In this document: positions 39,715 through 60,032 of the stretch, one piece after another
Position numbering within the stretch: the stretch's first letter is position 1
How the letters are laid out: the number at the start of each line of letters is the position of its first letter
DNA from: Candidatus Omnitrophota bacterium
Lineage (GTDB): Bacteria; Omnitrophota; Gorgyraeia; Gygaellales; Profunditerraquicolaceae
Reading direction: 5' to 3'
Assembly: GCA_028715415.1 (NCBI GenBank)
Contig: JAQURX010000010.1
Location: 3,668 to 67,667, forward strand
Length of the DNA: 64,000 nt
The notes under the pieces: model-generated
What the model was told of the DNA's origin: nothing
Databases searched by the model: none
Seen by the model: the letters and a program-made list of their open reading frames with translations, nothing else
Translations under genes and position numbers: made by a program

Positions 39715-39720
39715 TTTTTT

Positions 39721-43669: not shown

Positions 43670-43684
43670 AATCCCTCCCGATAC

Positions 43685-45181: not shown

Positions 45182-45183
45182 AA

Positions 45184-46185
45184 TTATTTAAACCTAACCA
45201 TAGTAAATAATTTAAACAACCTGCTAAAAGGAACATACCATTTGGAAAGTTGCCCCAATTGCCCGGATAATTTCATTTTGCCCTGAGTTACTGCGACGAA
45301 TGAATCGAGTTTGCCTAAAAAAACCTGCTCCCAAATATCTTTTGGAGCGCTGATAATAAAAGGGGCATCGGCATCGCTATCTAATCTGATAATCCTGCCT
45401 TTTTCAAAATTAAATTTATAAACAGCATCTGTTCCATCAAGCTTTATAGCAAGCTTTACAGTTAAATCAAGCTCCTTGCCTTTTGTTGCAATGAATTCAT
45501 CCTTATTAACCAAATCTACAATTGCCTGGATATGTTCTCTGGAAAACATTGGATACGCAGTTTCATGTTTAGTTAAATTATCCTTTAAAGCATTATCCAA
45601 ATCATCAAGCACATCTTTTTTAAATAACCTTGCTACAGCGGCAACCCTGATTGCTTCTTCTAAAGCCTCAGTCAAGCTAAGCGCATCTTCAAATTTTTCC
45701 CCAATAGCAATTGAGCCGTGATTCTTAAGCACGACGAGATTATTTGTCTTTAAGGCTTCAATTACCGGCTGAGGATTTGTTACAGTGGGAGTCTCCTGTG
45801 GAATTACCGGGACATCTCCTAAATAAAATTTGGTTTCAAAAGTTAAGGCTTTAAGCGATGAACAGACCGCAAAATAACCATTAATTATAGGTGGATGCGC
45901 ATGGATTACAACTTTTGCAGAAGAATTTTTATAAACTAAGCTGTGTAAAGGAAGTTCTGAACTAGGCTTAATACCCCCCTCAACTGTTCCGGAATTTAGA
46001 TCAACCTTAACTATATCAGCATCTTTCAACTGGCCTAAAGAAGTCCCAGTTGCAGTAATTAAAATTGATTCGTTATCAATGCGGCAGCTTAAGTTTCCCG
46101 ATTTTGCTACAGTCAAACCGACTTCATAAAGCCTCTTTCCAACCTTGATTATCTGCTCCTTTAAAACCTTTTCATTATCAGACAT
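45184..46185 (-). CDS. Class II aldolase/adducin-family protein fused to C-terminal SCP2-like domain
   Basis: N-terminal about 200 aa with metal-binding HAHPP...H pattern of fuculose-1-P aldolase/MtnB family; C-terminal about 120 aa ends TQGKMKLSGQLGQLSKW (SCP2 sterol-carrier-like). Confidence 0.6.
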   Translation of the reverse strand: MSDNEKVLKEQIIKVGKRLYEVGLTVAKSGNLSCRIDNESILITATGTSLGQLKDADIVKVDLNSGTVEGGIKPSSELPLHSLVYKNSSAKVVIHAHPPIINGYFAVCSSLKALTFETKFYLGDVPVIPQETPTVTNPQPVIEALKTNNLVVLKNHGSIAIGEKFEDALSLTEALEEAIRVAAVARLFKKDVLDDLDNALKDNLTKHETAYPMFSREHIQAIVDLVNKDEFIATKGKELDLTVKLAIKLDGTDAVYKFNFEKGRIIRLDSDADAPFIISAPKDIWEQVFLGKLDSFVAVTQGKMKLSGQLGQLSKWYVPFSRLFKLFTMVRFK

Positions 46186-46186
46186 T

Positions 46187-47122
46187 TTATACCTCTAAAT
46201 AAATGTGCTCTGCGATTAATTCATTTGGCGTTATATCAAAAGCCGGATAATATGCCTTTGCGTTTTTTGGAGCAAGGCAAAGCCCCTGAAATTCCAATAA
46301 TTCTTTATCAGGCCTTATTTCAATCTTAATGTCATTTCCTGTTTTTGCGTGGGATGGCGGCGGGCACAACACATAAAAAGGAATATTAAAGTGTTTGGCA
46401 AGTAAAGCAATTTGAAAGGTCCCGATTTTATTAGCGATGTCACCGTTTTGGGCTAAATTATCCGCGCCGACTAATACTTTACTGATTTTTCCCTCAAACA
46501 TTACCTGCGCAACCATATTATCTGTAATGATTGTTACAGGAAATTTTGCTTTCTGCAGCTCCCATGCTGTTAAACGCGAACCCTGAAGATACGGCCTGGT
46601 TTCAGTAACAAAAAAACTTACTTTTTTATTTTCCGCCCTGCAATATTCTCCGATTAGAGGAAGCAGCCCGCTGACATTGCAATGCGTAAGGATTACATCA
46701 CCGTCATTTAGCAGTTTGCTTGCTTTCTCCGCCTGAAGTATGCGTTTATTTTTCAGGCCTTCTAAAAAACCTAAGATGCATTTCTCTAACGGCATGTTTT
46801 TTTCAGCCCAACCTAACACCATGTCAGTTAAGAATTTAAATGACAGTGTCGGACGGGTAGCATTAATCGCCTCTGCAATTTTCTTTAAATCTGGCATTAA
46901 ATCTTTCTTACCCTTACTCTTGTTGATCTCAAGCAAAAAGATGTAAAAAACCAGGATTACCTGCCCAACAGCACGCGTTTTCATCTCTTTTATTGCCCTA
47001 CATGCCTGCTTGTAAGTTGTTGCCTTGATATATTTAACTTTATGAGGCAGCAAAGTTTCATCAAGAATATAAATTGCATTGTCTTTGAAACGGATCGGCC
47101 AGAAAAGTTCTGAGAATTCCAT
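46187..47122 (-). CDS. mtnA: MtnA/eIF-2B-family sugar-phosphate isomerase (methylthioribose-1-P or 5-deoxyribose-1-P isomerase)
   Basis: 311 aa, ILTHCNVSG and VGADNLAQNGDIANKIGTFQIALLAKHFNIPFYVLCP, the conserved core of the MtnA/e2B2 family. Confidence 0.65.
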   Translation of the reverse strand: MEFSELFWPIRFKDNAIYILDETLLPHKVKYIKATTYKQACRAIKEMKTRAVGQVILVFYIFLLEINKSKGKKDLMPDLKKIAEAINATRPTLSFKFLTDMVLGWAEKNMPLEKCILGFLEGLKNKRILQAEKASKLLNDGDVILTHCNVSGLLPLIGEYCRAENKKVSFFVTETRPYLQGSRLTAWELQKAKFPVTIITDNMVAQVMFEGKISKVLVGADNLAQNGDIANKIGTFQIALLAKHFNIPFYVLCPPPSHAKTGNDIKIEIRPDKELLEFQGLCLAPKNAKAYYPAFDITPNELIAEHIYLEV

Positions 47123-47128
47123 AATTAA

Positions 47129-47596: not shown

Positions 47597-47609
47597 ACCT
47601 CTCCTCCGA

Positions 47610-48359
47610 TTATTTTCCTTCTAATTTCTTAACTGTTTCAAGAGCAATTGTAATCAAGTTCGACTCTGCCATGTAATACATCGGATTCATAAATCCCATT
47701 TCACCGGTAATAACATTATCGCTTACTGCCAAAATTGACCCGGCCTTTACTTTGTAAGTCTGGGCGATAGTTAAAAGCGTTGAAGAAACCATATCTACTG
47801 CCATAGCTCCTTCTTTACGTTTTGCTTCAACTATTTCTCTTGTTTCGCGTAAAAGCGCATCAGTTGTCCATGCTGTGCCGCGGTGTACATTTAATCCCAT
47901 GCCTTTTGCGATTTCAAACATGGTATCGGAAATCTTCTTATCCGCAACTGTCTTAAAATCTTTATCAACATAATAAGGCGTTACCCCGTCGCCGCGGATA
48001 ACTTTATCAACAATAAATAAATCTCCAACCTTAATATTCTCATCAAGCGCACCGCAAGTTCCAATACGGATAATATTCTGAATTCCGGCATTACACATAA
48101 CTTCTGAAGTAATTGATGTATCAGTTGAGAACCTTCCTCCGTTAATTCCGGTGATTTTAATCCCTTGATACATGCCGGTATACATTGTGTATTCCATAAA
48201 AGAGAAATTCTTTACCGGATTCTCAATTTTCTTCATTAAGACTTCTAACCTATCCTTTGGCCCGGGAACAATTGCATATTTCCCCACATCCTGTGGACGA
48301 AGCTGCACCATTTGTGTTAAATCCTTGCCTGTCATGTGAATCTCTTTTTGCATTTGCAT
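47610..48359 (-). CDS. PNP/UDP-family nucleoside phosphorylase (candidate MTA/5'-deoxyadenosine phosphorylase)
   Basis: About 240 aa, RIGTCGAL and MVSSTLLTIAQ blocks align with the DeoD/Udp/MtnN phosphorylase fold (RVGSCGA, EMEAAG equivalents). Confidence 0.6.
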   Translation of the reverse strand: MQMQKEIHMTGKDLTQMVQLRPQDVGKYAIVPGPKDRLEVLMKKIENPVKNFSFMEYTMYTGMYQGIKITGINGGRFSTDTSITSEVMCNAGIQNIIRIGTCGALDENIKVGDLFIVDKVIRGDGVTPYYVDKDFKTVADKKISDTMFEIAKGMGLNVHRGTAWTTDALLRETREIVEAKRKEGAMAVDMVSSTLLTIAQTYKVKAGSILAVSDNVITGEMGFMNPMYYMAESNLITIALETVKKLEGK

Positions 48360-48410
48360 TTCTTTCTCCCTTTTTGATTGTTAATAAATCTATATTTTGT
48401 TTAAATATAA

Positions 48411-48851
48411 TTACTTTTTAGCTTCGTATGGTTCAAAATGTAAATATTCTGATTCTAAAGGTGCTAACTTCGGTTCACCTACTCCAAATATTTCATATAA
48501 ACCTTGGGAGTTCTCTGGAGGCACTGTCGGATTCTTACACCAACCAACAGTAAATTTTAATATTTTAACTTGATTATTTCCACCTTTAATCCATTCTCTA
48601 ACCACAAAGGTAAAAGTTGCAAAATCTTTGTTTAATGGATCTGTTTTAAAATTATGTTCTATATTCTCAATTGTCCCCACTGCTATCCAATCAGAAACTT
48701 GCAGGCATTTTTCTTCAGAATATTTACCAGAAACATTCCCTCCGTAAATAGGAAGGTTTTTCTCACAAACCACCCCTTTATATTCGCAATCTTTGGTGGC
48801 AAAAGCATAAACTGGCAATAAGAATAGAACTACGAGTAGGTATTTTTTCAT
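48411..48851 (-). CDS. Secreted Cys-containing hypothetical protein
   Basis: 146 aa, signal peptide MKKYLLVVLFLLPVYAFA. Confidence 0.3.
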   Translation of the reverse strand: MKKYLLVVLFLLPVYAFATKDCEYKGVVCEKNLPIYGGNVSGKYSEEKCLQVSDWIAVGTIENIEHNFKTDPLNKDFATFTFVVREWIKGGNNQVKILKFTVGWCKNPTVPPENSQGLYEIFGVGEPKLAPLESEYLHFEPYEAKK

Positions 48852-48857
48852 TTATTA

Positions 48858-49766
48858 TTATCTAAACATTCCTTCTAAATTTCCACCCAAGATATCAGCT
48901 TTGTCTTCCTCGCTAATATCTAAATTCTTTACCGCAGCAATACCTGCGGAGAAATCTTTTTTTGCCGGCCAGTCGCTGCCCCACAATAAATGCTTAGGCC
49001 CTAGTAAATCAAGCGCCAATAAAAAATTAGTTTTAACTTTATCACCGCTTGTATCTACATAAATATTCTTTAAAAAGTCAGTAGGATTTCCTTTTAGATC
49101 CTTTACAAAATTTATCCCGCGCAGCATTTGATAAGTTGTGTCAAACCTGTGCTGTAAAAATGGGATTGCTCCTCCAAAATGCGCAAAAATGAATTTTACC
49201 TTGGGAAAATCGCGCAATATATCAGACATTAAAAGCTTGCCAATACACATCGTAGTATCAAAAACATATTCGATTACCGGAGTAAGCAAAGGATCGTTAA
49301 CCCTTTCAAATCCAATAGGATTAACTATCTGGGAATGCACAAAAATCGGCAGATTCTGCTCCTGGGCCTGCCTATATATAGGTAAGAACATAGGGTCATC
49401 CAGATACATCCCATTGTAGCTTGAAGCAAGAGAAATTGCCCTAAACCCAAGCTCTCCGGTAACCCTGGTTAATTCATCCTGAAGATTCTTGGCACTATCA
49501 ACCGGTAATACAGCAGCACCAATAAACTTATCAGGGTAACGCTTTAAAATCTTAGCTACATTATCATTAAAGAGCCGAGCTACAAGAGAAATACTTCCTA
49601 GCTTTAAATGTGCATCAGAAGTCGGATAACTTAACACCGCTTTATCAATCCCAGCTTCCCCCATCAACTTAACTTGAGACTCGATATCCCCCCAAGCTTT
49701 AGAGAAAAAATGGGCGTTCGTTATTATCTCATCCGGCAACCAATGTGAGTGCGCGTCAATTATCAT
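48858..49766 (-). CDS. Amidohydrolase-2 (ACMSD-like) family metal-dependent hydrolase/decarboxylase
   Basis: 302 aa, MIIDAHSHW N-terminal metal-binding motif typical of PF04909. Confidence 0.65.
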   Translation of the reverse strand: MIIDAHSHWLPDEIITNAHFFSKAWGDIESQVKLMGEAGIDKAVLSYPTSDAHLKLGSISLVARLFNDNVAKILKRYPDKFIGAAVLPVDSAKNLQDELTRVTGELGFRAISLASSYNGMYLDDPMFLPIYRQAQEQNLPIFVHSQIVNPIGFERVNDPLLTPVIEYVFDTTMCIGKLLMSDILRDFPKVKFIFAHFGGAIPFLQHRFDTTYQMLRGINFVKDLKGNPTDFLKNIYVDTSGDKVKTNFLLALDLLGPKHLLWGSDWPAKKDFSAGIAAVKNLDISEEDKADILGGNLEGMFR

Positions 49767-50224
49767 TAATGCTCCGTACTCTTTAAAATTCTTTCTGTCA
49801 TTTCAATTTCATAGAGAAACTTTATTTCCGCTAAAACTTTTTTCCCGAATTCTTTTACAATTACGCTTTCAATTGCCTTTAACTTTAAAACCAGAAAATA
49901 ATACTCTGGCCTAAGCCTGGCCCCATCAAATTTTAAATTATTTCCCTCAACCAGTTTATTCTGGATATAAACTTTAAACTCATCAATATATTTCTGAGCA
50001 AGCTTTGGCTTATCCAGCTTATTTAAATCTTTTAAGATAATCTTATCAATTTCAACCTGCGTAAACTTGCGTTCAATTTTATCAAGCGCTTCTTTTGTTG
50101 TTTTGTAGAACCACACTAAGTAGCGTTTCTTTAAGTTTTTCGTATCGAGCTTGTCCACAGTTGCCTCCTGCTTTATTGTGCCATTCCTGCGCAAATTGTC
50201 ATCCCTGCGAAAGCAGGGATCCAC
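49766..50224 (-). CDS. Hypothetical protein (annotated N-terminus reads through an intergenic palindromic repeat; the real start is probably internal)
   Basis: 152-aa ORF; its first about 10 codons are encoded by the hairpin repeat at 50198-50221. Confidence 0.3.
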   Translation of the reverse strand: MDPCFRRDDNLRRNGTIKQEATVDKLDTKNLKKRYLVWFYKTTKEALDKIERKFTQVEIDKIILKDLNKLDKPKLAQKYIDEFKVYIQNKLVEGNNLKFDGARLRPEYYFLVLKLKAIESVIVKEFGKKVLAEIKFLYEIEMTERILKSTEH

Positions 50225-50259
50225 TACATCGTGTAGATTCCCGCTTTCGCGGGAATGAC
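50198..50259. repeat. Pair of inverted 24-nt hairpin motifs (GTCATCCCTGCGAAAGCAGGGATC / GATTCCCGCTTTCGCGGGAATGAC), REP/BIME-like
   Basis: Each unit is a 7-bp GC stem with GAAA-type loop. Unit 2 is the near reverse complement of unit 1 (2 mismatches), separated by the 14-nt segment cactacatcgtgta (50222-50235, internally taca..tgta). Confidence 0.6.
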
Positions 50260-50267
50260 AGCCTTTT

Positions 50268-51044
50268 TCATTTATTCGGATGTTCCTGCTTAAACGGAAT
50301 TACCGGAGCTGTCCAGGGAGTCTGCTGATTGATAATCGCAATCTCCAAAGGGCAAACATTCGCGGGAACAGTTAAAGCAAATTTTACTGCATTTTCAATT
50401 GCTTCGGTAGACATAAGCCTTGAGGCATCCCCGGTAATTTCTTTTAATTTACCGGTTAAATCAGTGTCTGTTACCCCCGGCAATAAAGATGTAACCTTAA
50501 TCCCATGATCACGCACCTCCCAGAATAAACCTTTTAGGAAAGCACGCAGCCCAACTTTTAATGAACTATAGACGATAAAATTTCTTGGCAAAGGATCGCA
50601 AAGTGTTGAACCTGAAACCATATTAATAATTGCGCCTGACTTAGCCTTAATCATATCATTAATGACTAAGCGAATTAACCGCACATATCCTAAATAATTA
50701 GTGTGCGCTAATCTTTCAAAATCTTCTATCGGTTGATCCTGAAAAGGATATTGGCTGGATACACCTGCGTTATTGATCAAAATATCGATTTTGCCAAATT
50801 TCTCTTTAGTTTTATTTACTAAATTATCCAAATCCTCTAACTTTGTGACATCACAGGCGATTGGCAATACCTCAACATTATATTTCTTTGCAATCTCATC
50901 TGCAGTTTCTTTTAACGGTTCAATTTGGCGCGCGGCAATAGCAACATTTACGCCTAAACTCGCTACTGTTGAAGCTAATGCCTTGCCAATCCCGCGGCTA
51001 GCTCCTGTTACAATCGCTACCTTACCTTTTAAATTATCACTCAT
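50268..51044 (-). CDS. Short-chain dehydrogenase/reductase (SDR), candidate ketoreductase
   Basis: KVAIVTGASRGIGK Rossmann motif, NNAG, catalytic YxxxK (YSSLK); likely start at MSDNL (51044). Confidence 0.8.
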   Translation of the reverse strand: MSDNLKGKVAIVTGASRGIGKALASTVASLGVNVAIAARQIEPLKETADEIAKKYNVEVLPIACDVTKLEDLDNLVNKTKEKFGKIDILINNAGVSSQYPFQDQPIEDFERLAHTNYLGYVRLIRLVINDMIKAKSGAIINMVSGSTLCDPLPRNFIVYSSLKVGLRAFLKGLFWEVRDHGIKVTSLLPGVTDTDLTGKLKEITGDASRLMSTEAIENAVKFALTVPANVCPLEIAIINQQTPWTAPVIPFKQEHPNK

Positions 51045-52164
51045 TACTCCTCCCTGGTTTAATCGGTGAAACAAAAAGCAATATTATTAATCCCAAACAA
51101 AAAATAATAAAACCAAAAGTAAAACTTTTTTGTAAAATTATGCCGCTTAATGCAGCTCCTAAGCCACCGGATACAAAACGCACGCTGCTATTTAAACTTG
51201 CCGCCTCATTTATAGAATCCCGCGGCAGGTCAGTAAGCATAGTTGATAGGCCTGCGTGGTTAAAAGTCCAGCCCAAACCCCAGATAACCATAATTATAGC
51301 AAAGACAAAAAGCGGAAGATGGAAAATCAAAAGAAAAATACTTAAAATCATTAAAATAATTCCTAAATCCACTGTCTTTACTCTGCCAAGCTTATCTGCA
51401 AGGTCTCCTCCGATAACCTCACCAAAAACTCCGCTTAAGCTTGTCAAAGTAATGAGCATACTGATTAAGAATTGCCCAAAACAAAACTTGGTTGAGAAAT
51501 AAACCCCTAACCACTGCTGAACCCCATGGTAAATTAAGCTGATAAAGAAGATATAAGTAAAAATTGCGAATATCTTTTTATCTCTTAAAACATCAAGGTA
51601 ATTTACCTTAAATTTAGTTAGATCACTTTTAAAACTAGGCAAATAAAAAAACATTACAATGCTCAAAATAAATCCAATTATCGCAGGAAGTATAAAGATA
51701 AGTCGCCAATAAATTATTCCGCTTAAAAATAACCCGGCAAGCGAAGCGACAAAGGTTGCGCCAAAAAATATTCCTACAAATTTTCCGCGTTTATCCGGCT
51801 CCATGTGCTTTGCTATTAAAACAAGCCCGAGGGGGATAACGGAAGCGCCGAAAAAACCCATTAAGAATCTTGCTAAGAAAAGAGTTTTAATATTTGCAGC
51901 AAAACCTGCTAAAAGATTAGCAACAGAGAAGAAAAAGATGGAAATCAACTCTACTTTTCTTGCATCTACCGCCCTGATTAATGGCCCGTATAAAAGTGCA
52001 GCTAAGCCATAAGGCAGCATATACATCCAGATAATCTTACCAGCTATAAACTGAGAAAGAACAAATTCATGGGCAATTGAAGGCACTATAGCTGCGCTTG
52101 CAGCGACATTAAACGAAAGAACAGCACCTTCTAAACAAAGGATGATAAAAGTAAATTTCTTCAC
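51037..52164 (-). CDS. MFS transporter (candidate exporter of the cluster product)
   Basis: 375 aa, 12 TM, MFS loop signature. Confidence 0.7.
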   Translation of the reverse strand: MKKFTFIILCLEGAVLSFNVAASAAIVPSIAHEFVLSQFIAGKIIWMYMLPYGLAALLYGPLIRAVDARKVELISIFFFSVANLLAGFAANIKTLFLARFLMGFFGASVIPLGLVLIAKHMEPDKRGKFVGIFFGATFVASLAGLFLSGIIYWRLIFILPAIIGFILSIVMFFYLPSFKSDLTKFKVNYLDVLRDKKIFAIFTYIFFISLIYHGVQQWLGVYFSTKFCFGQFLISMLITLTSLSGVFGEVIGGDLADKLGRVKTVDLGIILMILSIFLLIFHLPLFVFAIIMVIWGLGWTFNHAGLSTMLTDLPRDSINEAASLNSSVRFVSGGLGAALSGIILQKSFTFGFIIFCLGLIILLFVSPIKPGRSNE

Positions 52165-52604
52165 TTACTACTAGCTTCTCGCTCAATTACCTTTTTAAAT
52201 ATCTCTAAGTTTTCTTTGGAATGCTTATTAATAAACCCTTCCACCTGCTCGTCGTTAAACTTAGCTTTATCATCCATCTCAAAGTGTTGAATCCAAGTCA
52301 ACTCTATCCCCTGAGGTTTCGGCGTATAAAGCCAGATAATCTTCATGTATTTAAAAGGGAATTTCGGCTCATGCCTTTCGGCATAGGCAAAATACTTATC
52401 TTTAAAAAGCAGCCTCCAGGATACCCAGGATTTATCTTCATCATCAGTTAAACGGAAGGTAATTTTGTTATCTTTCTTCTCAACTACCTCTGCCTTTTTA
52501 TATTCTCCGCCGAATAGCTCAGTCCAGCGCGGGATATCATTAGAAATATCAAAAATTAATTCATAAGGTGCGTTAATAATTATGGAATTACAAGTATGCC
52601 CCAT
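52161..52604 (-). CDS. SRPBCC-superfamily protein (polyketide cyclase/aromatase TcmN-like fold)
   Basis: 147 aa, size and hydrophobic-pocket pattern of Polyketide_cyc2/START-like proteins. Confidence 0.5.
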   Translation of the reverse strand: MGHTCNSIIINAPYELIFDISNDIPRWTELFGGEYKKAEVVEKKDNKITFRLTDDEDKSWVSWRLLFKDKYFAYAERHEPKFPFKYMKIIWLYTPKPQGIELTWIQHFEMDDKAKFNDEQVEGFINKHSKENLEIFKKVIEREASSK

Positions 52605-52619
52605 TTTATTTCTCCTTTT

Positions 52620-52937
52620 TTACTCTTTCCCGAATAAGCTTAATAAAATTGCCAAGTCTTTCTTTGCGCTTAATGAATGAGGCGCATTTTTTGGCATAAA
52701 AATAAAAACCCCCGGCTTCATTTTAATCTTCTTTCCATTTAAAACAAAAATCCCTTCTCCTTTTAACACGGTAACTGCTGCTTCGCGGGTAGATGTATGC
52801 TCGGAGATATCGCTTCCTTTTGCTAAACACATCAAAGTATAATTAGAAGTGGGAGTCTTGACCAAAACTTTGCTGAAAATCCCTTCTTTGGGGAATTCCA
52901 TCATTTTTTCTAACTCTTTGAATATAGAATTTATCAT
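52620..52937 (-). CDS. Cupin-2 domain protein (TcmJ-like)
   Basis: 105 aa, two cupin motifs (G(X)5H..E...G and PxxxxH: ISEHTSTREAAVTVLKGEG...PKNAPHS). Confidence 0.6.
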   Translation of the reverse strand: MINSIFKELEKMMEFPKEGIFSKVLVKTPTSNYTLMCLAKGSDISEHTSTREAAVTVLKGEGIFVLNGKKIKMKPGVFIFMPKNAPHSLSAKKDLAILLSLFGKE

Positions 52938-52938
52938 T

Positions 52939-53736
52939 TTATATAATTGCTACAACTCTTGACCAGGCAGCTCCTGTATTTTTAATCTTTACCGGGAAAC
53001 AAATGATTTTAAATCCGGAGGAAGGCAGCTTTTCTAAATTTGCTAACCTTTCAATATGGATAAATTCTCTCTTGCGGCCGTAAAAATGCGCTGGATACAA
53101 ATACTTGATGTCTTTCTTCTCTAAGAATTCCTTAAGCATAAATCTATAAGGCCTATCTATCCCCATTGTATCTACCCCGAAGATTTTAATACCTCTATCT
53201 AAGAGATAATCAATCGCAGAAATATCAACCCCGGGATAGTCTGAGAAATATTTCGGCCCACCATATAACTTATCCGCCCCCGTATGCAGAATTACAATAT
53301 CCAATGGCTTTAATTTATAATTTACCTTTGCAAGGCCTGCTTCAATATCAGAAGCAGCAATAGTTTCGTTTGGTTTTTTATGAGTTAAATCAAGTTTTAC
53401 CCCATCTTGATAACAATATTCAAGGGGGATTTCTTCTGCAGTTTTTGCTGGGCGATTCTCTGAACGAGAACCGTAATGAAATGAATAATCAAGGTGAGTG
53501 CCGATATGAACCGGAGAATGCACAACTTCTAAAGAAAGAAACTCTTCATCCGGAAGGTCTTCTTTTTTTAAGATGCGTTTCCCTAAAGCATATTTAATCT
53601 TGCCTAAAAGAGTCTTGCCCATGATAACGCGGTTAAACTTCTCTACACCTGCCGAGTGAGTTACGCGTTCAATAGCTACTTTGTGTACTTCAAAAGCTTT
53701 ATCGTCTATAGGAAGGCTTAAGTCAATTATTTGCAT
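52939..53736 (-). CDS. Putative cyclase family protein (PF04199, kynurenine-formamidase-like fold)
   Basis: 265 aa with HSPVHIGTHLDYSFHYG (HxGTHxDxPxH) metal-binding motif. Confidence 0.65.
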   Translation of the reverse strand: MQIIDLSLPIDDKAFEVHKVAIERVTHSAGVEKFNRVIMGKTLLGKIKYALGKRILKKEDLPDEEFLSLEVVHSPVHIGTHLDYSFHYGSRSENRPAKTAEEIPLEYCYQDGVKLDLTHKKPNETIAASDIEAGLAKVNYKLKPLDIVILHTGADKLYGGPKYFSDYPGVDISAIDYLLDRGIKIFGVDTMGIDRPYRFMLKEFLEKKDIKYLYPAHFYGRKREFIHIERLANLEKLPSSGFKIICFPVKIKNTGAAWSRVVAII

Positions 53737-53758
53737 AGAGAATACCCCTACAAAAAGA

Positions 53759-54004
53759 TTACGCCTTGATCAGTTTAGACTCAACCACTTTCACAATATC
53801 ATTTATAGTTGAAGATTTTGTGATTTCCTTAGGGCTTAATTTTGTACTGAATTCTTTTTCAAGCGCAATAACCGTTTCTACCATTTCCGTTGAGTCAACG
53901 CCAATACTCTCTAATAAACTTAAATCATCTCTTAATTCTTCTGGCCTTACTTTTAAGAGTTTTACAAGGCAGTCTTTAATTTTTTGTTTTGTATCCATTA
54001 TCAT
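53759..54004 (-). CDS. Acyl carrier protein
   Basis: About 80 aa from MIMDTKQK; phosphopantetheine-attachment context LESIGVDSTEMVETV (DS motif) in a four-helix-sized protein. Confidence 0.7.
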   Translation of the reverse strand: MIMDTKQKIKDCLVKLLKVRPEELRDDLSLLESIGVDSTEMVETVIALEKEFSTKLSPKEITKSSTINDIVKVVESKLIKA

Positions 54005-54008
54005 CTCC

Positions 54009-55469
54009 TTATATCTGCACTTCACCCTTTGTCGCTGCTGCTTCCCATTTATTAATTCCATTCATAACATCCTGAAAGCAAAGCTTAGCAAGCGGGTCAA
54101 AATTACTTTCCATAATCCGGTTGATTCTTCCGGGTTTTGAGAAAAATTCACGCATGCACCATGAACCAAGGCGCCCTAAATCTTCTGTAGTTAAATGGTC
54201 GGTTGGAATAACCGGATGCAGAAAATCCCAAGTACTGAAATCAACCTTCTTTGGATCCATCCAATTCTTCTTTAAAGCAATCCTCCACATTGGTGAATTC
54301 GGAGCAGGCGTAACGTAACCCACCCACATAATATCCGGATCCACTGCGTCGGTAAATTCAAACCGCTTCTTAATAATCTCCTCAGTATCATAATCAAAAC
54401 CCATCATAATATCGGCAACTATCGCAATATCCTGCTTACGCAAAATTTCAATCGTCTTTTGAATCTGGTCTATTGTGATACCTTTTGCTATTCTTTTAAG
54501 CTCTGACTGCGTTGTAACCTCTATACCAAATACGCCCATAAACAACCCTGTCTCTTTCATTAAAGGAAGGACTGATTCGCAATTAACCCAGTCAATTGCA
54601 CGCCCTAAAGATACCCATTTAATTGGGTTATTCGCTGCTTTTTTAAGCTCGCAGAATTTCTGCACTCTCTTGGGATCCACGTTAAAATTGTCATCCTGGA
54701 TAACTACAACCTTAACCCCGTATTTTTTATGCAAAAGATTAAGCTCTTCCATGACTCTTTCCGGGCTCTTTGCGCGCCACTTTAAGAAATCAGACGGTGA
54801 ACGCGGGTCAAACTGGTCCCATTCATAACAAAATGTGCACGCTGAAGGACAGCCTCGGGAAGTCACCATATCCACAAACGGCTTCCAATAAGTATGCCCC
54901 ACATATTTATCCATTGGAAATAAATCATAGGCGGGAAGTGGTAATTTATCCAAATCTTCCATGAGCGGCTTATGCGGGCCCATTACAATCTCACCATCAA
55001 TACGAGAAGTTACACCGCCCACATCTTTTAAACTTTTCTTTTTATCTATTGCCTCAATTAAATCTCCGAAAGATTCCTCTTCTCCCATTACTACAAAATC
55101 AACTGCCGGATTCTCTTCTAAAGTTGGTACTGGCATGGCCGAATACCACAAGCCGCCAAAGATTATCTTTGTTTTAGGTAATGCCTTTTTAATTTTTTGT
55201 GCTGCCTCTTTAAAATGCCTTAATACGCCGTATCCGCCATAACCATGCAACTGTTCACCCATTACAACAACATCAGGATTCTTCTCTTTAACCTGTTCAA
55301 CTAATTCATCCATGGGTGTTTGAAATGCTTTCCCGTCGATAACTGCAACATCGGTATAGCCTCTCTCGCGGACATATGCTGCCCAATGCGCATAGAGCTG
55401 ATTTGGGGACCTGTGGATTCCGTGCGTTGCCCATGCGCCTACCTTAGGCATTACAAATAGAATTTTCAT
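54009..55469 (-). CDS. Cobalamin-binding (class B) radical SAM enzyme
   Basis: N-terminal B12-binding Rossmann-like domain (MKILFVMPK...), radical SAM CPSACTFC (CxxxCxxC); 486 aa. Confidence 0.8.
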   Translation of the reverse strand: MKILFVMPKVGAWATHGIHRSPNQLYAHWAAYVRERGYTDVAVIDGKAFQTPMDELVEQVKEKNPDVVVMGEQLHGYGGYGVLRHFKEAAQKIKKALPKTKIIFGGLWYSAMPVPTLEENPAVDFVVMGEEESFGDLIEAIDKKKSLKDVGGVTSRIDGEIVMGPHKPLMEDLDKLPLPAYDLFPMDKYVGHTYWKPFVDMVTSRGCPSACTFCYEWDQFDPRSPSDFLKWRAKSPERVMEELNLLHKKYGVKVVVIQDDNFNVDPKRVQKFCELKKAANNPIKWVSLGRAIDWVNCESVLPLMKETGLFMGVFGIEVTTQSELKRIAKGITIDQIQKTIEILRKQDIAIVADIMMGFDYDTEEIIKKRFEFTDAVDPDIMWVGYVTPAPNSPMWRIALKKNWMDPKKVDFSTWDFLHPVIPTDHLTTEDLGRLGSWCMREFFSKPGRINRIMESNFDPLAKLCFQDVMNGINKWEAAATKGEVQI

Positions 55470-56704
55470 TACTTATCTCCTTTCTCAACTATCAATACTG
55501 AGTTTATTCCGCCTCTACCGCGGGAAATTATCATCGCCTTATTTATATTATGCGTTCTTGCTTCCTTTTGAACAAAATTTAAACCATCAACAGCAGGATT
55601 CTCTAAATTTGTTGTTGGAGGAACTAACTTATTTTCCATTGCAAGAAGTGTAATAATCATGTCTATTGCCCCGCTTGCTCCAAGTAAATTTCCGAAGCTT
55701 GACTTTGGGCAGCTTACGGGAATCTTTGCCGCATGCGCTCCAAATACACTTTTTATTGCAGCAATCTCAGAATTATCCCAGATATCCACAGCCAAACCAT
55801 CTAAACTGATGTAATCAATCCCCTCTGGATTAACCTTTGCATCAGCTAACGCTATATTAATCGCCCGGGCTAACTGTTTACCGTCGCGATCGGGATTAAT
55901 CCTGTCACGCCCGTCGCATGAAGTCCCATAACCGCTGATAAACCCTAAAACATTCACTCCTCTTTGCTTGGCCCGCTCAACACTTTCCATCACAACTATA
56001 CCAGCACCCTCTCCAATAACAAATCCGTCGCGTTTTTTATCAAACGGCCTATATGCTGATTCCGGATGTTCATTATTTCTTGAAAGCGCGCCGTATGTAT
56101 TACAGCAAAGCAGCGAATAAGGAGTAACGGGGGCTTCCATGCCTCCGGCTAAAATCATATTAAGTTTATTTTTGCTTAAAACTTTGCGCGCATAGCCTAA
56201 TGCCATTAAAGATCCGGCCCTATCAGCAACAACAGTTTTAGAAAATCCCTTTATCCCATAATAAATTGAAACCTGTCCTTGGGGTGCTGCGGGAAACCAT
56301 GCCGAAGCCATATAAGGAGAAACTCCCTCGCGGCCTTCAATATACAAATCGCGTAATTCTGTTTCAGCATAAAGCCAGCCGCCGATAGCGTTACCTAAGA
56401 ATATCCCAACCAATTTTGGATCTTCGTTTTTTATATCGATCTTCGCATCAAGAAGAGCTAACTCAGAAGCAATCAAGGCCATGTGAGAAAATGCGTCTAT
56501 CTTTTTAAGAAGCCGTTCTGAAACATGGCTGTATTTTTCCAAATCATCAATCTGTCCTGCAATATGCGAAGGGTACCTCGAAGCATCAAAACGCGTAATA
56601 TTCTTTATAAAGTTTCTTCCTGCCTTAACATTTGCCCAAAACTGCCGCTTTCCTATCCCGGAAGGAGCCACAACACCTATACCGGTTATTGCAATCTTAT
56701 CCAT
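55469..56704 (-). CDS. Ketosynthase-like protein lacking the Cys/His/His triad (chain-length-factor/KS-beta-like)
   Basis: Thiolase-fold KS N- and C-domains, but active-site positions read TVVADRAGSLMAL (no Cys), TSCDGRD and ISLDGLAVD (no His). Overlaps the upstream KS gene by 8 nt. Confidence 0.8.
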   Translation of the reverse strand: MDKIAITGIGVVAPSGIGKRQFWANVKAGRNFIKNITRFDASRYPSHIAGQIDDLEKYSHVSERLLKKIDAFSHMALIASELALLDAKIDIKNEDPKLVGIFLGNAIGGWLYAETELRDLYIEGREGVSPYMASAWFPAAPQGQVSIYYGIKGFSKTVVADRAGSLMALGYARKVLSKNKLNMILAGGMEAPVTPYSLLCCNTYGALSRNNEHPESAYRPFDKKRDGFVIGEGAGIVVMESVERAKQRGVNVLGFISGYGTSCDGRDRINPDRDGKQLARAINIALADAKVNPEGIDYISLDGLAVDIWDNSEIAAIKSVFGAHAAKIPVSCPKSSFGNLLGASGAIDMIITLLAMENKLVPPTTNLENPAVDGLNFVQKEARTHNINKAMIISRGRGGINSVLIVEKGDK

Positions 56705-57959
56705 TGTATCTCCTTAAAATTAAAGACGAATGAATCCCAGAAAAACCGCTACTTGTTTTAAGTATTGTGTTTACTTTTTTAGCCCTTGCAACATTAGGTA
56801 TATAATCCAAGTCGCATAAGGGGTCTTTTTCTTCCTGATTTATCGTAGGAGGAAGAATATTCTTCTCAAAAATCATACAACATATGGTAAATTCCACTGC
56901 ATTTGCCGCAGCCAAAGGATGTCCGATCATTGATTTAAGAGAACTAATCGGAAGTTTATAAGCATAATCACCGAAAATTGTTTTATATGCATTGGTTTCA
57001 AAGATATCATTCATACGAGTTGAGGAACCATGTGCATTGATATAATCTATTTCACTGGGCTTCATCCCAGCATCTTTAAATGCAAGATCAATGCAGCTGC
57101 TCATAGCCCCTCCATCCGAAGGAAGGTCTGTCATATGAAAAGCATTGCAGCTTGTGCCAAAACCCATTACTTCTGCATAAATACGCGCATTTCTTTTTAG
57201 GGCATGATTTAATTCTTCCAAAACCAATATCCCAGCGCCTTCAGAAAGGACAAACCCGTTACGCTTATTATCAAACGGCCGAGAAGCTTTTTCCGGATTC
57301 TCGTTATTAACTGCCAAAACATTAACTACATCAAAAGCGCCAAATGTAATTGGCGTAAGGGGCGCTTCTGCAGCGCCACAAATCATGATATCCTGCTCTC
57401 CATCCTGAATAGTCTCAAGGCCAAAACCCATTGAGTCTGTCCCGGCAGTACACCCTGTAGATAGAGTATTACAAATTCCTTTTAATCCATACCGGGCGCT
57501 AATCTCGATTGAGGGAGTATTAAACATCGCGGCATCATACAAATCAGGGCGGACCCTTGAAGGATCAATGGGATTCTTACCGTCGTCGGTAACAAGGGCA
57601 AATTCCTCTTCCATGTATTTTGTCCCACAGATAGCATTAGCAAGGCAAACCCCGACTCTTTCCGGATCTTCCTTAGAAAAATCAAGGTTACTATCTTTTA
57701 TCGCCATGTCCCCTGCTGTTACTCCAAACTGCACATATCTATCCATGCGCACTGCTTCATCATGGGTAAGCCCCAGTTTAAAAGGATCAAAATCCCTTGC
57801 CTCGGCGGCAATCTTTGTATTAAAAACAGAGACATCAAAACTATCCACTAACCTAACTCCAGACTTTCCTCCCGACATCCCTTTCCAGGCATTTTCCTTA
57901 CCAATACCATTGGGAGAAATCACACCGATACCCGTAATAACAACTCTACGCTTAGACAT
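56697..57959 (-). CDS. Beta-ketoacyl synthase (KS-alpha/FabF-like, catalytically intact)
   Basis: Active-site Cys in LSTGCTAGTDSMG; His in AFHMTD and NAHGSSTRMND; KSMIGHPLAAA C-terminal motif. Confidence 0.85.
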   Translation of the reverse strand: MSKRRVVITGIGVISPNGIGKENAWKGMSGGKSGVRLVDSFDVSVFNTKIAAEARDFDPFKLGLTHDEAVRMDRYVQFGVTAGDMAIKDSNLDFSKEDPERVGVCLANAICGTKYMEEEFALVTDDGKNPIDPSRVRPDLYDAAMFNTPSIEISARYGLKGICNTLSTGCTAGTDSMGFGLETIQDGEQDIMICGAAEAPLTPITFGAFDVVNVLAVNNENPEKASRPFDNKRNGFVLSEGAGILVLEELNHALKRNARIYAEVMGFGTSCNAFHMTDLPSDGGAMSSCIDLAFKDAGMKPSEIDYINAHGSSTRMNDIFETNAYKTIFGDYAYKLPISSLKSMIGHPLAAANAVEFTICCMIFEKNILPPTINQEEKDPLCDLDYIPNVARAKKVNTILKTSSGFSGIHSSLILRRYNG

Positions 57960-58565
57960 CTATTTGTTCTCCTTATTATCTTCTATCCTTTTAACCTTAA
58001 ACACTATATTCCCACCATCAGGGCAAGTTACTGTATCTATTGAGTCAGGGTCTTGCATAAAGAAAAACTTCGCTCCAAAGTTAAGCGCAAATAGCGCAGG
58101 AAAAGCACAATGAAAAGCAGCCCCACAAAACCCGGGGATACATTTAAGGCCTGTTGTTTCCCATTTATCACCTATCTTATAACCGAATGTGCATTTTCCT
58201 TTTGCCTGCACAACTTCGATAACCATCTTCTTCGGATTCGGACCTTTAAAACTCGGGTCTTTCGCTACTGTTTCGACCTTCCCATCCTTATCTAGAATCT
58301 CAGCTTTAAATTCTAGCTTCCCCCCGTCGGGACAAGTAACCAAAAGAGACCTCTGATTATCACGAAAAGGGAATTTCGCCCCGAAACTCAATGCATAAAT
58401 TACCGGGAACAAAGCATGCGCCAGCCCTAAACAAAAAAATTTCGGCGGATGCGTAAAATCTTCCAAAATAAGCTCATCACCTTTTTTATACCCATGATAA
58501 CACTCCCCGTAAACATTCATAACCGTGAGTTTTAATCTTGGAAATGGAGTATTGACTTCAGGCAT
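57960..58565 (-). CDS. Tandem-duplicated Cys/His-rich domain protein, unknown function
   Basis: Two homologous about 95-aa halves: C..GYK.GD....C.G.AH/FH..FP...AL.FGAKF.F......VTCPDGG...FK. Possible metal- or redox-site protein. Confidence 0.4.
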   Translation of the reverse strand: MPEVNTPFPRLKLTVMNVYGECYHGYKKGDELILEDFTHPPKFFCLGLAHALFPVIYALSFGAKFPFRDNQRSLLVTCPDGGKLEFKAEILDKDGKVETVAKDPSFKGPNPKKMVIEVVQAKGKCTFGYKIGDKWETTGLKCIPGFCGAAFHCAFPALFALNFGAKFFFMQDPDSIDTVTCPDGGNIVFKVKRIEDNKENK

Positions 58566-58566
58566 A

Positions 58567-59571
58567 TTAACTAAATAATCCTTTCGTATTGTTTATTAAC
58601 TCTTCCTTGGTGAAAAATCTCTTTGTTTTCTCAACTTGATGCACCATTTCTACTAATTTTGAATTTAGTGGGGCGCGTAAACTATTAGTTTTTGCTAAAG
58701 CGACAAATTCACCATTGATATAATCAACCTCTGAAAGCTTGCCTCTTTTAATACTTTGTAATATTGAGCCGTATAAAGGCTCCTTGCTTAAATTAGCCAT
58801 TATTCCTGAGAAAATCTTCGCTGCCTCCGTTGTCGGCAATGAAATTAATTTAGTAAGCCGCTCCAGTGGAAAGTCCGGTAAGGAAGCCAAATTAATCCTT
58901 GAGCCAGATACTATTTTATGGCCTTCCTTCCATATGCCGATACTTATACTGCTTATCTCCGGGCTGGCAAAACACTCTTGCATGCTTAAGCCTAAAATCC
59001 CCGGGATACAATTATTGGCGTTAACGAAAATCTTTAAATATTTCATTGCTTTAATATCGTCTGTGGCTACTACCGGGAAAATATCGCCAAGCAAAACCTT
59101 TACTTTAGAAACAAGCTCGCTGTTTTTAATAAACGCGCTCCCGATAATCCAACTTCCTTCAAAATTATGCACGACCGTGCCTGCTTCTAAATTAGTCGAG
59201 CCAAACATTACTATGCTAGAAATGATTTTTTCTCCCGAAAGAATCCTTGCGGCGATATCTTCTGCTTGAACGCCGTTTTGAGTAATAACGATTACTGAAT
59301 TAGCGATAAATTCAAGGTTTTCTTTTATCGCACAGCTTAAATCCTGAGTTTTTGTAGCAAAGATTGCTATGTCCGGGCAAAAATTAAGCCTCGTATCGGT
59401 GTCAATTTTTAAATCAAACTCACCCCTTACCCCGCAAATCTTTAAGCCTTTATTTCTGATTGCCTCTACCGCCTCTTTATGGCCGACGAGAAATACATTT
59501 TTGTTTTTTGACTTTAAATACCCTGCCACTAAAGCGCCTATTGCCCCGGCGCCAATAACTGCTATTTTCAC
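58567..59571 (-). CDS. ApbA/PanE-family 2-dehydropantoate-reductase-like NAD(P)H oxidoreductase
   Basis: MKIAVIGAGAIGALVAGYL Rossmann N-terminus, ApbA N- and C-domain layout, 334 aa. Confidence 0.7.
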   Translation of the reverse strand: MKIAVIGAGAIGALVAGYLKSKNKNVFLVGHKEAVEAIRNKGLKICGVRGEFDLKIDTDTRLNFCPDIAIFATKTQDLSCAIKENLEFIANSVIVITQNGVQAEDIAARILSGEKIISSIVMFGSTNLEAGTVVHNFEGSWIIGSAFIKNSELVSKVKVLLGDIFPVVATDDIKAMKYLKIFVNANNCIPGILGLSMQECFASPEISSISIGIWKEGHKIVSGSRINLASLPDFPLERLTKLISLPTTEAAKIFSGIMANLSKEPLYGSILQSIKRGKLSEVDYINGEFVALAKTNSLRAPLNSKLVEMVHQVEKTKRFFTKEELINNTKGLFS

Positions 59572-59870
59572 TTCAAGTTCTCCCCATTCTTTCTTGCAAG
59601 CGGCTGGTTATTATTCTTTGGGAATCCGAATTTTTTGTAATCAAATCCTGTTTGTTCCAAAAGCCTAATCATCATACTGTAGAATGGCGAAGGCACATCA
59701 GAAAAAAAAGCACCAACTACATCCTGCTCTTCAACTAATGCAGATTTTCTCTTAACAGCATTGTTTTCCGCTTCCTTGACTACGGCCTCTTCGGTAATAT
59801 GACGATGAAAGACTGGTATCTTAGAAATCATAAGATTAAGCTTTTCTTGAGTTGTTTTATCCCAATTCAT
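59568..59870 (-). CDS. Hypothetical protein, first gene of the biosynthetic operon
   Basis: 100 aa; 4-nt overlap with the reductase gene. Confidence 0.3.
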   Translation of the reverse strand: MNWDKTTQEKLNLMISKIPVFHRHITEEAVVKEAENNAVKRKSALVEEQDVVGAFFSDVPSPFYSMMIRLLEQTGFDYKKFGFPKNNNQPLARKNGENLK

Positions 59871-60012
59871 AATCTAACTCCCTATATTGGTTAAAGTTAA
59901 CCCCTTGTTTTAAAATATAGTAAAATTTTACTAATCAAATTTTAGTATAGTATACCTTTAAATCAATTAAAGTCAAGAAGAAATTGAAGAAAATTTACTC
60001 TGGAAGTAAAAC

Positions 60013-60032
60013 GGACAGAATTAATTCTGTCC
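60013..60032. promoter_or_regulatory. Perfect 20-bp palindrome GGACAGAATTAATTCTGTCC in the divergent intergenic region (operator-like)
   Basis: Exact dyad symmetry read directly from the sequence. Confidence 0.4.

Follow-up and report, generated by a model that had tools for sequence, protein, structure and literature searches.

Within a 64,000-nucleotide stretch of Candidatus Omnitrophota DNA, hereafter the window, we found a gene cluster (positions 48858-59870) that is likely to be a chromosomal, vertically inherited type II polyketide synthase (PKS) cluster of this phylum, of the anaerobe type and similar to the one for clostrubin. Judged by the encoded proteins, it combines a catalytically intact ketosynthase (KSalpha) with a conserved, catalytically dead partner (KSbeta), both of which belong to type II PKS clades, and the genes for its cyclases and its decarboxylase have homologues in aromatic polyketide pathways. 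The predicted product is most likely an aromatic polyphenol or a quinone-type polyketide.

Pairs of a ketosynthase (KS) and a chain-length factor (CLF) in Candidatus Omnitrophica have been listed, without analysis, in a 2023 catalogue (PMC10132072), and antiSMASH calls of the 'ladderane' type were reported for metagenome-assembled genomes (MAGs) of Omnitrophota (PMC9902471). The main paper on Omnitrophota genomics does not mention the locus (PMC10066038), and we found no account of this locus or cluster type in the literature searched.

The ketosynthase pair

The two ketosynthase genes overlap by 8 nt, the start of KSbeta running into the stop of KSalpha. Alignment of the window proteins with 10 orthologues showed that the active site of KSalpha is complete (TG[C]TAG, NAF[H]MT, SL[K]SM and NA[H]GSS). 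In KSbeta, the catalytic residues are substituted from Cys to Arg, His to Asp and His to Asp, and each of the 10 orthologues examined shows the same three substitutions as the window. Among solved structures, KSalpha matched AntD (6SMO_B, 377.7 bits) and the Act KS (1TQY_A, 376.9 bits) best, with FabF scoring lower (354.7 bits), and it has an insertion and the CNAxHMT motif in common with AntD and the Act KS. Its best matches in plasmid records were type II PKS ketosynthases of Azospirillum, Bacillus bombysepticus and Streptomyces, and those of Streptomyces adjoin TcmI cyclases and annotated CLFs.

In order to place the pair, we calculated neighbour-joining trees (200 bootstraps, 43-44 sequences) with E. 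coli FabF and FabB, Bacillus FabF, FabF-like proteins of Omnitrophota and Firmicutes, and the Act, Ant, Clr and other pairs as references. KSalpha was found inside the type II PKS KSalpha clade (bootstrap 99.5% and 100%) and KSbeta inside the CLF clade (100%), and the FabF-like genes of Omnitrophota were placed away from the pair. Two FabF-like KS genes with intact active sites are present in each of the loci L065 and L073, and these group with FabF and not with the PKS pair.

At the position of the lost Cys, KSbeta carries Arg and not Gln, which is the hallmark of actinobacterial CLFs at this position and is implicated in decarboxylative priming. The same Arg occurs in ClrB, the CLF of clostrubin biosynthesis, as well as in KSbeta of Azospirillum and B. 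bombysepticus, and because ClrB belongs to a working PKS, Gln is not required in this clade.

A distribution scan with one genome per GTDB species recovered KSbeta orthologues (58-90% identity) at 64 loci, nearly all of which are labelled Omnitrophota and in which the whole gene set is syntenic. That KSbeta is an intact, conserved open reading frame (ORF) in these 64 species-level genomes shows that the gene is no pseudogene. An NCBI protein of a Candidatus Omnitrophica MAG is 100% identical to KSalpha, although a look-up of contigs by the exact KSalpha sequence gave no entry, and Omnitrophota MAGs and metagenomes contribute hundreds of further protein clusters with ≥85% identity to it. When KSalpha and the TIGR04076 protein of the cluster were used to search for homologues, the results were filled by Omnitrophota orthologues of at least 79% identity, and more distant relatives were obtained from representatives at 50% identity. 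In that set, the Omnitrophota-type KSbeta forms one full-length representative, whose next relatives are 46% and 44% identical; the latter is ClrB of Clostridium beijerinckii/C. puniceum, the closest characterised relative.

These results bear out the sequence-only reading of this DNA, which had described an intact Cys/His/His ketosynthase (the Lys is present as well) overlapped by 8 nt by a paralogue with all three catalytic residues replaced. They also speak against two possibilities it had raised, namely that both genes fall among housekeeping FabF/FabB proteins or that the CLF is a degraded pseudogene.

Gene content and tailoring functions

ORF listing and translation together with Pfam and NCBIfam scans resolved 48858-59870 into 14 closely packed genes of the same direction (Table 1), with junctions ranging from short overlaps to a 43-nt gap. 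The gene families and coordinates given in the sequence-only reading were upheld, as were co-direction and tight packing, but its count of 15 genes was not. The GC content of the cluster (0.36-0.42) is the same as in the rest of the window, which is uniform at 0.35-0.42, in line with the native appearance claimed before.

Table 1 Features of the PKS locus and the attached block (window positions, from the upstream end downwards).
Feature	Position	Strand	Basis or remark
Terminator-like hairpin	60013-60032		just before the promoter-like element
Promoter-like element, TTGACT-16-TATACT	59949..59976	-	~80 nt 5' of first gene; top minus-strand match in region
DUF2621-like small helical protein, first gene of unit	59568..59870	-	Pfam DUF2621 E 1.5e-4, under family cut-off
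ApbA/PanE-family NAD(P)H 2-oxoacid/ketone reductase	58567..59571	-	Pfam ApbA and ApbA_C; TIGR00745 153 bits vs cut-off 141
TIGR04076 protein, tandem (x2)	57960..58565	-	each repeat with three invariant Cys and one near-invariant His
KSalpha, catalytic ketosynthase, 'CNAFHMT' motif	56697..57959	-	Pfam; active-site columns; tree
KSbeta/chain-length-factor partner	55469..56704	-	Pfam; active-site columns; tree
Radical SAM enzyme, N-terminal B12-binding domain, CxxxCxxC motif	54009..55469	-	Pfam B12-binding and Radical_SAM
Discrete acyl carrier protein (ACP), GVDSTE serine motif	53759..54061	-	Pfam PP-binding 41.8 bits; translation
PF04199 cyclase	52939..53736	-	Pfam Cyclase E 1e-27
Cupin_2 protein, accessory gene	52620..52937	-	Pfam
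Single-domain SRPBCC aromatase/cyclase, TcmN/WhiE type	52161..52604	-	Pfam Polyketide_cyc and Polyketide_cyc2
Major facilitator superfamily (MFS) transporter, candidate exporter	51037..52164	-	Pfam MFS_1 E 8e-43
Short-chain dehydrogenase/reductase (SDR) oxidoreductase	50268..51074	-	Pfam adh_short
Conserved 152-aa protein	49766..50224	-	no Pfam or NCBIfam match
Amidohydro_2 protein, non-oxidative aromatic-acid decarboxylase type	48858..49766	-	Pfam
PNP/Udp-family nucleoside phosphorylase (PNP), first gene of block	47610..48359	-	Pfam PNP_UDP_1; NCBIfam Udp 121, DeoD 99, HpnG 50.6 bits
MtnA-type (5-substituted) ribose-1-phosphate isomerase	46187..47122	-	Pfam IF-2B; TIGR00524 199.5 bits vs cut-off 185.85
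Class II aldolase with C-terminal SCP2-like (hydrophobic ligand carrier) domain	45184..46185	-	Pfam Aldolase_II E 2e-37; SCP2 22.3 bits vs 21.3
NAD(P)-dependent aldehyde dehydrogenase (ALDH)	43685..45181	-	NCBIfam BADH-like 522, StyD-like 446 bits, all under cut-offs
AMP-forming acyl-CoA ligase, long-chain/aryl-acid type	42110..43669	-	Pfam AMP-binding

The accessory genes point to aromatic polyketide chemistry. Among solved structures, the SRPBCC protein matched only the aromatase/cyclases TcmN ARO/CYC (2RER/2REZ, E 7e-25) and WhiE ARO/CYC (3TVR, 2KF2). PF04199 cyclases are called 'OxyN/DpsY-type' in the polyketide literature; here the matches to solved structures were weak and none was informative, isatin hydrolase being the top one. 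The Amidohydro_2 protein is best read as a putative aromatic-acid decarboxylase, because its nearest solved structures are LigW 5-carboxyvanillate decarboxylase (4ICM, E 5e-26), ACMSD and gamma-resorcylate decarboxylase. The SRPBCC and Amidohydro_2 matches argue against a further possibility named in the sequence-only reading, that the 'cyclases' are unrelated housekeeping enzymes. No oxygenase gene is present in the cluster, in keeping with the prediction that most of the Omnitrophota classes concerned live anaerobically (PMC10066038).

Most of the individual functions proposed earlier are sustained by the matches in Table 1 and those described here: the discrete ACP with its phosphopantetheine-attachment serine, the TcmN-like SRPBCC protein, the PF04199 cyclase, the ACMSD-like amidohydrolase as a decarboxylase candidate, the MFS exporter candidate, the ketopantoate-reductase-like gene, the class B (B12) radical SAM gene and a duplicated Cys/His-rich protein, which is the TIGR04076 tandem. 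Two assignments changed. The cupin, described as TcmJ-like, gave generic Cupin_2 matches only among solved structures and none of the RemF/TcmJ type, so this identity was dropped; it was seen in 17 related loci only and is not universal among the orthologous clusters. For the SDR, the family was confirmed, but its proposed role as a ketoreductase received no specific support: the best solved match was clavaldehyde dehydrogenase (2JAH), FabG-type enzymes scored ~100 bits, and an ActIII-like ketoreductase was rejected.

The start codons of two genes probably differ from the listed ones, with an internal Met near 54004 as the probable start of the ACP and a Met ~30 nt inside the ORF as the likely start of the SDR. 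Every MFS gene detected has the SRPBCC gene on one side and the SDR gene on the other, also in the deep-branching loci L052, L054, L055, L063 and L032; in L054, a class I SAM methyltransferase gene (L054:14395-15261) is located between the MFS and SDR genes. Orthologues of the 152-aa protein (40-71% identity) hold the same slot in related loci. The ApbA/PanE reductase gene is retained upstream of KSalpha in Omnitrophota and in the related clusters L168 and L170/L171, and the DUF2621-like gene adjoins the ApbA or the radical SAM gene in every lineage examined. The L054 orthologue of the DUF2621-like protein is above the Pfam cut-off, and three orthologues gave faint PCP_red matches.

The radical S-adenosylmethionine (SAM) enzyme is the most conserved gene of the locus. 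Its slot varies, yet all deep-branching loci with enough sequence (L052, L054, L063, L032 and L168) have it. The best family-level matches in NCBIfam, near full length, were BchE (TIGR02026, 207.7 bits vs cut-off 481.35) and HpnJ (TIGR03471, 155.6 vs 577.6), and the enzyme is not of the ladderane type (TIGR04072, 71.8 bits vs cut-off 360). BchE, the anaerobic Mg-protoporphyrin cyclase, and HpnJ, which acts in hopanoid ring contraction, perform O2-independent ring chemistry and not methylation. The window enzyme is an orthologue of neither, as its scores are well under the cut-offs, and its context lacks tetrapyrrole and hopanoid genes. The best solved relative is the dehydratase AprD4 (6FD2, E 4e-16), which is not known to use cobalamin, followed by the methylases TokK and CysS. 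From the B12 domain, the sequence-only reading had suggested C-methylation or rearrangement; while the B12 radical SAM class stands, C-methylation is only one option, because the enzyme is BchE/HpnJ-like and its nearest structure is that of an enzyme not known to depend on cobalamin. L052 encodes an additional B12 radical SAM enzyme (L052:17481-18968) and another protein with weak SRPBCC-like similarity (L052:6262-6696).

The TIGR04076 tandem precedes KSalpha in Omnitrophota and in L168, and no cluster of the Omnitrophota/L168/L170/L174 group is without the domain; L170 has it as two single genes and L174 as one gene. The clostrubin cluster (L166) holds it twice: as a 175-aa fusion, N-terminal to an ACP, directly after ClrB (L166:11260-11787), and free-standing further downstream (L166:15656-15946). 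Its predicted structure gave no confident fold assignment. Going by these sequence comparisons, TIGR04076 is a previously unrecognised accessory of this PKS clade which travels with the PKS, and the protein is probably metal-binding and ACP-assisting.

At the upstream end, the promoter-like and terminator-like elements (Table 1) are weak evidence, as the counts of such sites in the scanned region were not above shuffled expectation. An Rfam scan of the window revealed no cobalamin, SAM or other riboswitch and two tRNAs only. These, tRNA-Ala(GGC) and tRNA-Leu(CAA) at 39459-39714, lie within a long run of minus-strand genes, the strand that carries nearly every gene of the window. They are followed by a LAGLIDADG-like ORF at 39490-40404 (+), whose true start must be further downstream because the listed ORF overlaps the tRNAs. 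A 656-nt gap, with an ORF for a 116-aa PilZ-domain protein at 60170-60520 (+), separates the cluster from envelope-sugar genes (WecA-like GT4, PIG-L, WbqC and GT1). A 1507-aa ORF is located at 29176-33699 (-); Omnitrophota genomes are known for large proteins.

The attached nucleoside-processing block and alternative readings

The conserved unit probably runs past 48858 to about 42110, through a block of genes for a PNP, an MtnA-type isomerase, an aldolase-SCP2 fusion, an ALDH and a coenzyme A (CoA) ligase. The ligase scored higher as long-chain-fatty-acid-CoA ligase than as acetate-CoA ligase (403 vs 241 bits, NCBIfam). When metagenomes were scanned with the PNP protein, 80 loci were recovered. 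The PNP gene lies beside cluster genes in 29 long metagenome loci, and the other four tabulated loci end within ~2 kb of it on that side. The genes for MtnA, aldolase-SCP2 and ALDH are syntenic across related loci, and the CoA ligase gene is found downstream of ALDH in 30 of 36 long loci, the remaining six ending before that point. In the window, two small genes break the conserved order, one for a 146-aa protein with a signal-peptide-like N-terminus (48411-48851) and one for a DUF6794 protein (47129-47596); neither has a counterpart in any of ~140 related loci.

Adjacency among close relatives proves little, because the neighbouring RlmN, GDSL and leucyl-tRNA synthetase (LeuRS) genes are syntenic there as well; the deep-branching loci say more. 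The genes of L054 are arranged as ligase, PNP, MtnA, aldolase, ALDH, radical SAM enzyme, DUF2621-like, ApbA, (TIGR04076), KSalpha, KSbeta, ACP, cyclase, SRPBCC, MFS, SDR and Amidohydro_2, and L052 shows this order in part, starting at MtnA. The PNP-MtnA-aldolase block is thus on the opposite side of the PKS genes in both loci, still adjoining them. The L168 cluster again ends with PNP, MtnA and the same aldolase-SCP2 fusion; since the sequence of this locus stops within the aldolase gene, the position of an ALDH gene is beyond its end.

The radical SAM by-product 5'-deoxyadenosine is inhibitory. In the dihydroxyacetone phosphate (DHAP) shunt, a phosphorylase, an isomerase and a class II aldolase salvage 5'-deoxyadenosine and methylthioadenosine, and the block holds PNP_UDP_1, IF-2B/MtnA and Aldolase_II genes, the gene triad of this shunt, in a row. 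As the preferred reading, the block would most simply remove the 5'-deoxyadenosine produced by the radical SAM enzyme by a route of the DHAP-shunt type.

We compared the conservation of the cluster with that of its surroundings. Median identities to the window were 90% for the radical SAM enzyme, 88% for PNP, 86% for SDR, 84% for KSalpha, 83% for TIGR04076, 80% for both SRPBCC and the PF04199 cyclase, and 79% for KSbeta, compared to 82% for LeuRS (only 2 loci), 61% for RlmN, 56% for GDSL and 50% for the CoA ligase. The core PKS enzymes are therefore about as slow-evolving as LeuRS (n = 2 loci) and well above RlmN and GDSL in conservation, which is unusual for a secondary-metabolite cluster. 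Conservation of this degree speaks for a product with a physiological role, for instance a clostrubin-like redox-active or protective envelope compound, rather than for a dispensable antibiotic, and suggests that the product matters for basic cell physiology.

Several observations weigh against parts of the clostrubin-like PKS reading and of the salvage function assigned to the block. The window lacks genes for a phosphopantetheinyl transferase and a malonyl transferase. The trees are by neighbour-joining only, on the number of sequences given above and without aryl-polyene, ladderane, dendrubin or wexrubicin references; branches within the CLF clade are poorly resolved, and the conserved gatekeeper positions of the CLF (W/A(G)/L, corresponding to Act F109/T112/F116) give no chain-length call. 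The radical SAM enzyme is far under the cut-off of every named NCBIfam family, which makes its reaction a guess. Because the housekeeping neighbours are syntenic too, part of the linkage of the PNP block is shared ancestry. Moreover, a long-chain/aryl CoA ligase and an SCP2 domain on the aldolase are not expected for simple 5'-deoxyadenosine salvage, and a third feature that goes beyond a DHAP shunt is the recurrence of aldehyde/acid-interconverting enzymes in related clusters.

How far do these observations favour other explanations? We give almost no credence to the view that both ketosynthases are housekeeping FabF paralogues, the second of them decaying, amid 'cyclases' that are unrelated enzymes of an operon-dense region. 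PGAP-type models do name both proteins beta-ketoacyl-ACP synthase, KSalpha reaches 449 bits against the FabF-type subfamily NF005589 (cut-off 387), and the synteny extends to the flanking housekeeping genes. However, KSalpha is under the FabF equivalog cut-off (457 vs 493.75 bits), KSbeta is intact with identical active-site substitutions in all orthologues, and contig JBAZKC010000001.1 holds a separate FabF-like gene (L066) in addition to the orthologous cluster (L016). The tree placement and the accessory genes, which accompany the KS pair in four other lineages, likewise contradict this view. Quite improbable, too, is a reduced, lipid-like product (ladderane-like, aryl-polyene-like or another membrane lipid), for which the KS pair would carry out fatty-acid-type elongation and the radical SAM enzyme would modify the alkyl chain. 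Such a product would agree with the 'ladderane' calls in Omnitrophota MAGs (PMC9902471), which need not refer to this locus, with the score of KSbeta against FabF structures (286 bits), which slightly exceeds that against the Act CLF (259 bits), with MMPL and LolA-like lipid-export genes in the relatives L168, L172 and L174, and with the SCP2 domains. It conflicts with the aromatic signature of the locus, in which SRPBCC matched aromatic polyketide cyclases only and a homologue of aromatic-acid decarboxylases is present, with the position of the KS pair within type II PKS clades, and with a gene set homologous to that of clostrubin, a proven aromatic polyketide. Pfam scans found neither dehydratase nor enoyl-reductase genes in the cluster, and the TIGR04072 score is far under the cut-off. 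The aryl-polyene and ladderane alternatives of the sequence-only reading are disfavoured.

A different role for the block is unlikely, although we assign it a small but appreciable probability: the radical SAM enzyme would attach the 5'-deoxyadenosyl moiety of SAM to the polyketide, in the way that HpnH modifies hopene and MqnE acts in the futalosine pathway, and the block would trim the adduct, making SAM a two-carbon donor. PNP would remove adenine, MtnA would isomerise the substituted ribose-1-phosphate, the aldolase-SCP2 would release DHAP and polyketide-CH2-CHO, and ALDH (or aldehyde:ferredoxin oxidoreductase) with the CoA ligase would yield an aryl-acetyl-CoA. This proposal would explain why the block stays with the PKS genes through three gene orders and why the radical SAM and PNP genes are the two most conserved ones. 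It is also in keeping with the hydrophobic-ligand domain of the aldolase and a radical SAM-SCP2 fusion in the related L173, with the long-chain/aryl-acid type of the CoA ligase, which is not of the acetate type, with the recurrence of ALDH, aldehyde:ferredoxin oxidoreductase and LuxC/LuxE in related clusters, and with AprD4, a dehydratase not known to use cobalamin, as the best solved relative. On the other hand, neither of the adenosylating enzymes HpnH and MqnE is among the listed matches of the radical SAM enzyme, and PNP scores lower against HpnG or futalosine hydrolase (25.7 bits) than against Udp/DeoD. Together, phosphorylase, isomerase and class II aldolase are exactly the set with which the DHAP shunt processes free 5'-deoxyadenosine or methylthioadenosine, and the SCP2 match is barely over the Pfam cut-off. 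In addition, we know of no chemical precedent for the trimming route. We are similarly doubtful that the radical SAM enzyme and the block form one tailoring route that puts a two-carbon aldehyde or acid side chain on a lineage-wide, physiologically important redox-active polyketide, as distinct from an optional antibiotic. If true, adenosylation and trimming would be a new use of SAM as a carbon donor.

Proposed pathway and comparison with known systems

In the clostrubin-like PKS pathway that we propose, the KSalpha/KSbeta heterodimer and the ACP would assemble a poly-beta-keto chain from malonyl units, with phosphopantetheinyl transferase and malonyl transferase supplied from genes elsewhere. 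The TcmN/WhiE-type SRPBCC protein would fold the chain and aromatise the first ring, and the PF04199 cyclase would close further rings, helped by the cupin where present. The LigW-like enzyme may then take off an aromatic carboxyl group. The B12-domain radical SAM enzyme would contribute an O2-independent tailoring step, either C-methylation or a BchE-like oxidation/cyclisation, and the SDR and the PanE-family reductase would reduce carbonyl groups. The MFS transporter is a candidate for product export, and the block from PNP to CoA ligase would dispose of the inhibitory 5'-deoxyadenosine released by the radical SAM enzyme.

The most familiar type II PKSs are antibiotic pathways that occur sporadically in actinomycetes. 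In the present case, a type II PKS is a fixed, slow-evolving chromosomal part of an uncultivated phylum that is mostly tiny, mostly anaerobic and reduced in genome, in which an aromatic polyketide might serve redox chemistry, protection or host interaction. The comparisons outline a so far uncharacterised set of anaerobe type II PKSs with a recurrent B12 radical SAM enzyme, in which oxygen-free tailoring would replace oxygenases. The fixed linkage of the PNP block would mean either a dedicated removal of the radical SAM by-product or a new tailoring route.

Among related metagenome clusters, L170-L174 have the same core together with further B12 radical SAM enzymes, export genes of the LolA-like, MacB and MMPL types, FMN reductases and LuxC/LuxE. 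An ~800-aa B12 radical SAM enzyme fused to SCP2 is encoded at L173:14895-15621, where it runs over the locus end, and at L172:20519-21242; the related type II PKS cluster of L173, which it terminates, contains in addition a fusion of cupin and ACP as well as export genes of the LolA-like and MacB types. In L168 (L168:1-21242, GCA_964580455.1), KSalpha is 65% identical to that of the window, and KSbeta (P0241) belongs to a 90%-identity cluster whose other members are labelled Deltaproteobacteria (NCBI); the locus comes from a divergent MAG lineage, possibly outside Omnitrophota. This cluster holds two tungsten-type aldehyde:ferredoxin oxidoreductases, one of them at the SDR slot of the window (the same slot is taken by an FMN reductase in L170), an amine-oxidase-like flavoprotein, and an MMPL transporter and a DUF1329 protein upstream. 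These extra genes suggest an aldehyde intermediate and envelope export of a lipophilic product.

The block resembles the DHAP shunt in its three enzyme families, their order and the aldehyde-oxidising enzyme that follows. It differs in that the phosphorylase is Udp/DeoD-like and not MTAP-like (MTAP 21.6 bits), the aldolase is fused to SCP2, the ligase is not an acetyl-CoA synthetase, and the block is tied to a PKS cluster. Ladderane-type (TIGR04072) clusters of anaerobes likewise bring together a FabF-like KS, an ACP and a B12 radical SAM enzyme, and this co-location may be the source of the ladderane-type calls in Omnitrophota (PMC9902471). Unlike them, the window cluster has aromatic cyclases and an aromatic-acid decarboxylase homologue and is devoid of dehydratase and enoyl-reductase genes; of the aryl-polyene hallmarks (dehydratases, thioesterase, LolA-like, MMPL), domain scans found none in it.

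The sequence-only reading had likened the cluster to the aromatic type II set tcmJKLMN. The type II PKS assignment holds, but the nearest characterised system is clostrubin and not tcm. With tcm and whiE of Streptomyces, the window shares KSalpha/CLF/ACP, a single-domain TcmN/WhiE aromatase/cyclase and a cupin gene in the cluster. The KSalpha proteins are about 45-47% identical, Gln in the actinobacterial CLF stands where the window has Arg, the cupin is not polyketide-cupin-specific, and the window lacks a TcmI-type cyclase, an O-methyltransferase and an oxygenase. The clr, wex, den and ant clusters are regarded as ancestral type II PKSs (PMC7693217). Ant (AQ-256, Photorhabdus), whose AntD is the top solved match of KSalpha, den and others have a KS-CLF-ACP-TcmN-OxyN architecture, as found in the window, and ant and den use a duplicated TcmN-TcmN aromatase (Ishida et al., PMC7693217). 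The Azospirillum cluster carries Arg in KSbeta as in the window, but has monooxygenases and a 310-aa SRPBCC protein, ~2x the single-domain length. None of the ancestral non-actinobacterial clusters examined has a radical SAM enzyme, TIGR04076 or a nucleoside-trimming block.

The clostrubin cluster likewise comes from a strict anaerobe, has no oxygenases and has Arg in its CLF. Clostrubins help anaerobic plant pathogens to survive oxygen and to repel competitors (PMC5321127). Seven families are common to both clusters, namely KSalpha (46% identity), KSbeta with Arg (44%), ACP, TIGR04076, the PF04199 cyclase (48%), the single-domain SRPBCC protein (40%) and Amidohydro_2 (34%), and the order KSalpha, KSbeta, followed by PF04199 cyclase, SRPBCC and Amidohydro_2, is the same. 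The overall identities of 28-48% imply that the product need not resemble clostrubin. The gene sets also differ: the clr cluster is without the B12 radical SAM enzyme, the PanE-family reductase and the PNP-MtnA-aldolase block, and has no SDR or MFS gene at equivalent positions. It has a set of its own, with a KSIII, two FrsA-like hydrolases, DUF362, DUF169, CMD, two phosphopantetheinyl transferases and an ABC transporter, and the tailoring genes among these (KSIII, FrsA-like, DUF362, DUF169 and CMD) were not found at 42110-59870 of the window. TIGR04076, fused to an ACP in clr, is duplicated in tandem in the window. Overall, what is new compared to the known clostrubin-type PKS is the embedded radical SAM tailoring enzyme, the fixed nucleoside-processing block and a conservation similar to that of LeuRS (two loci).

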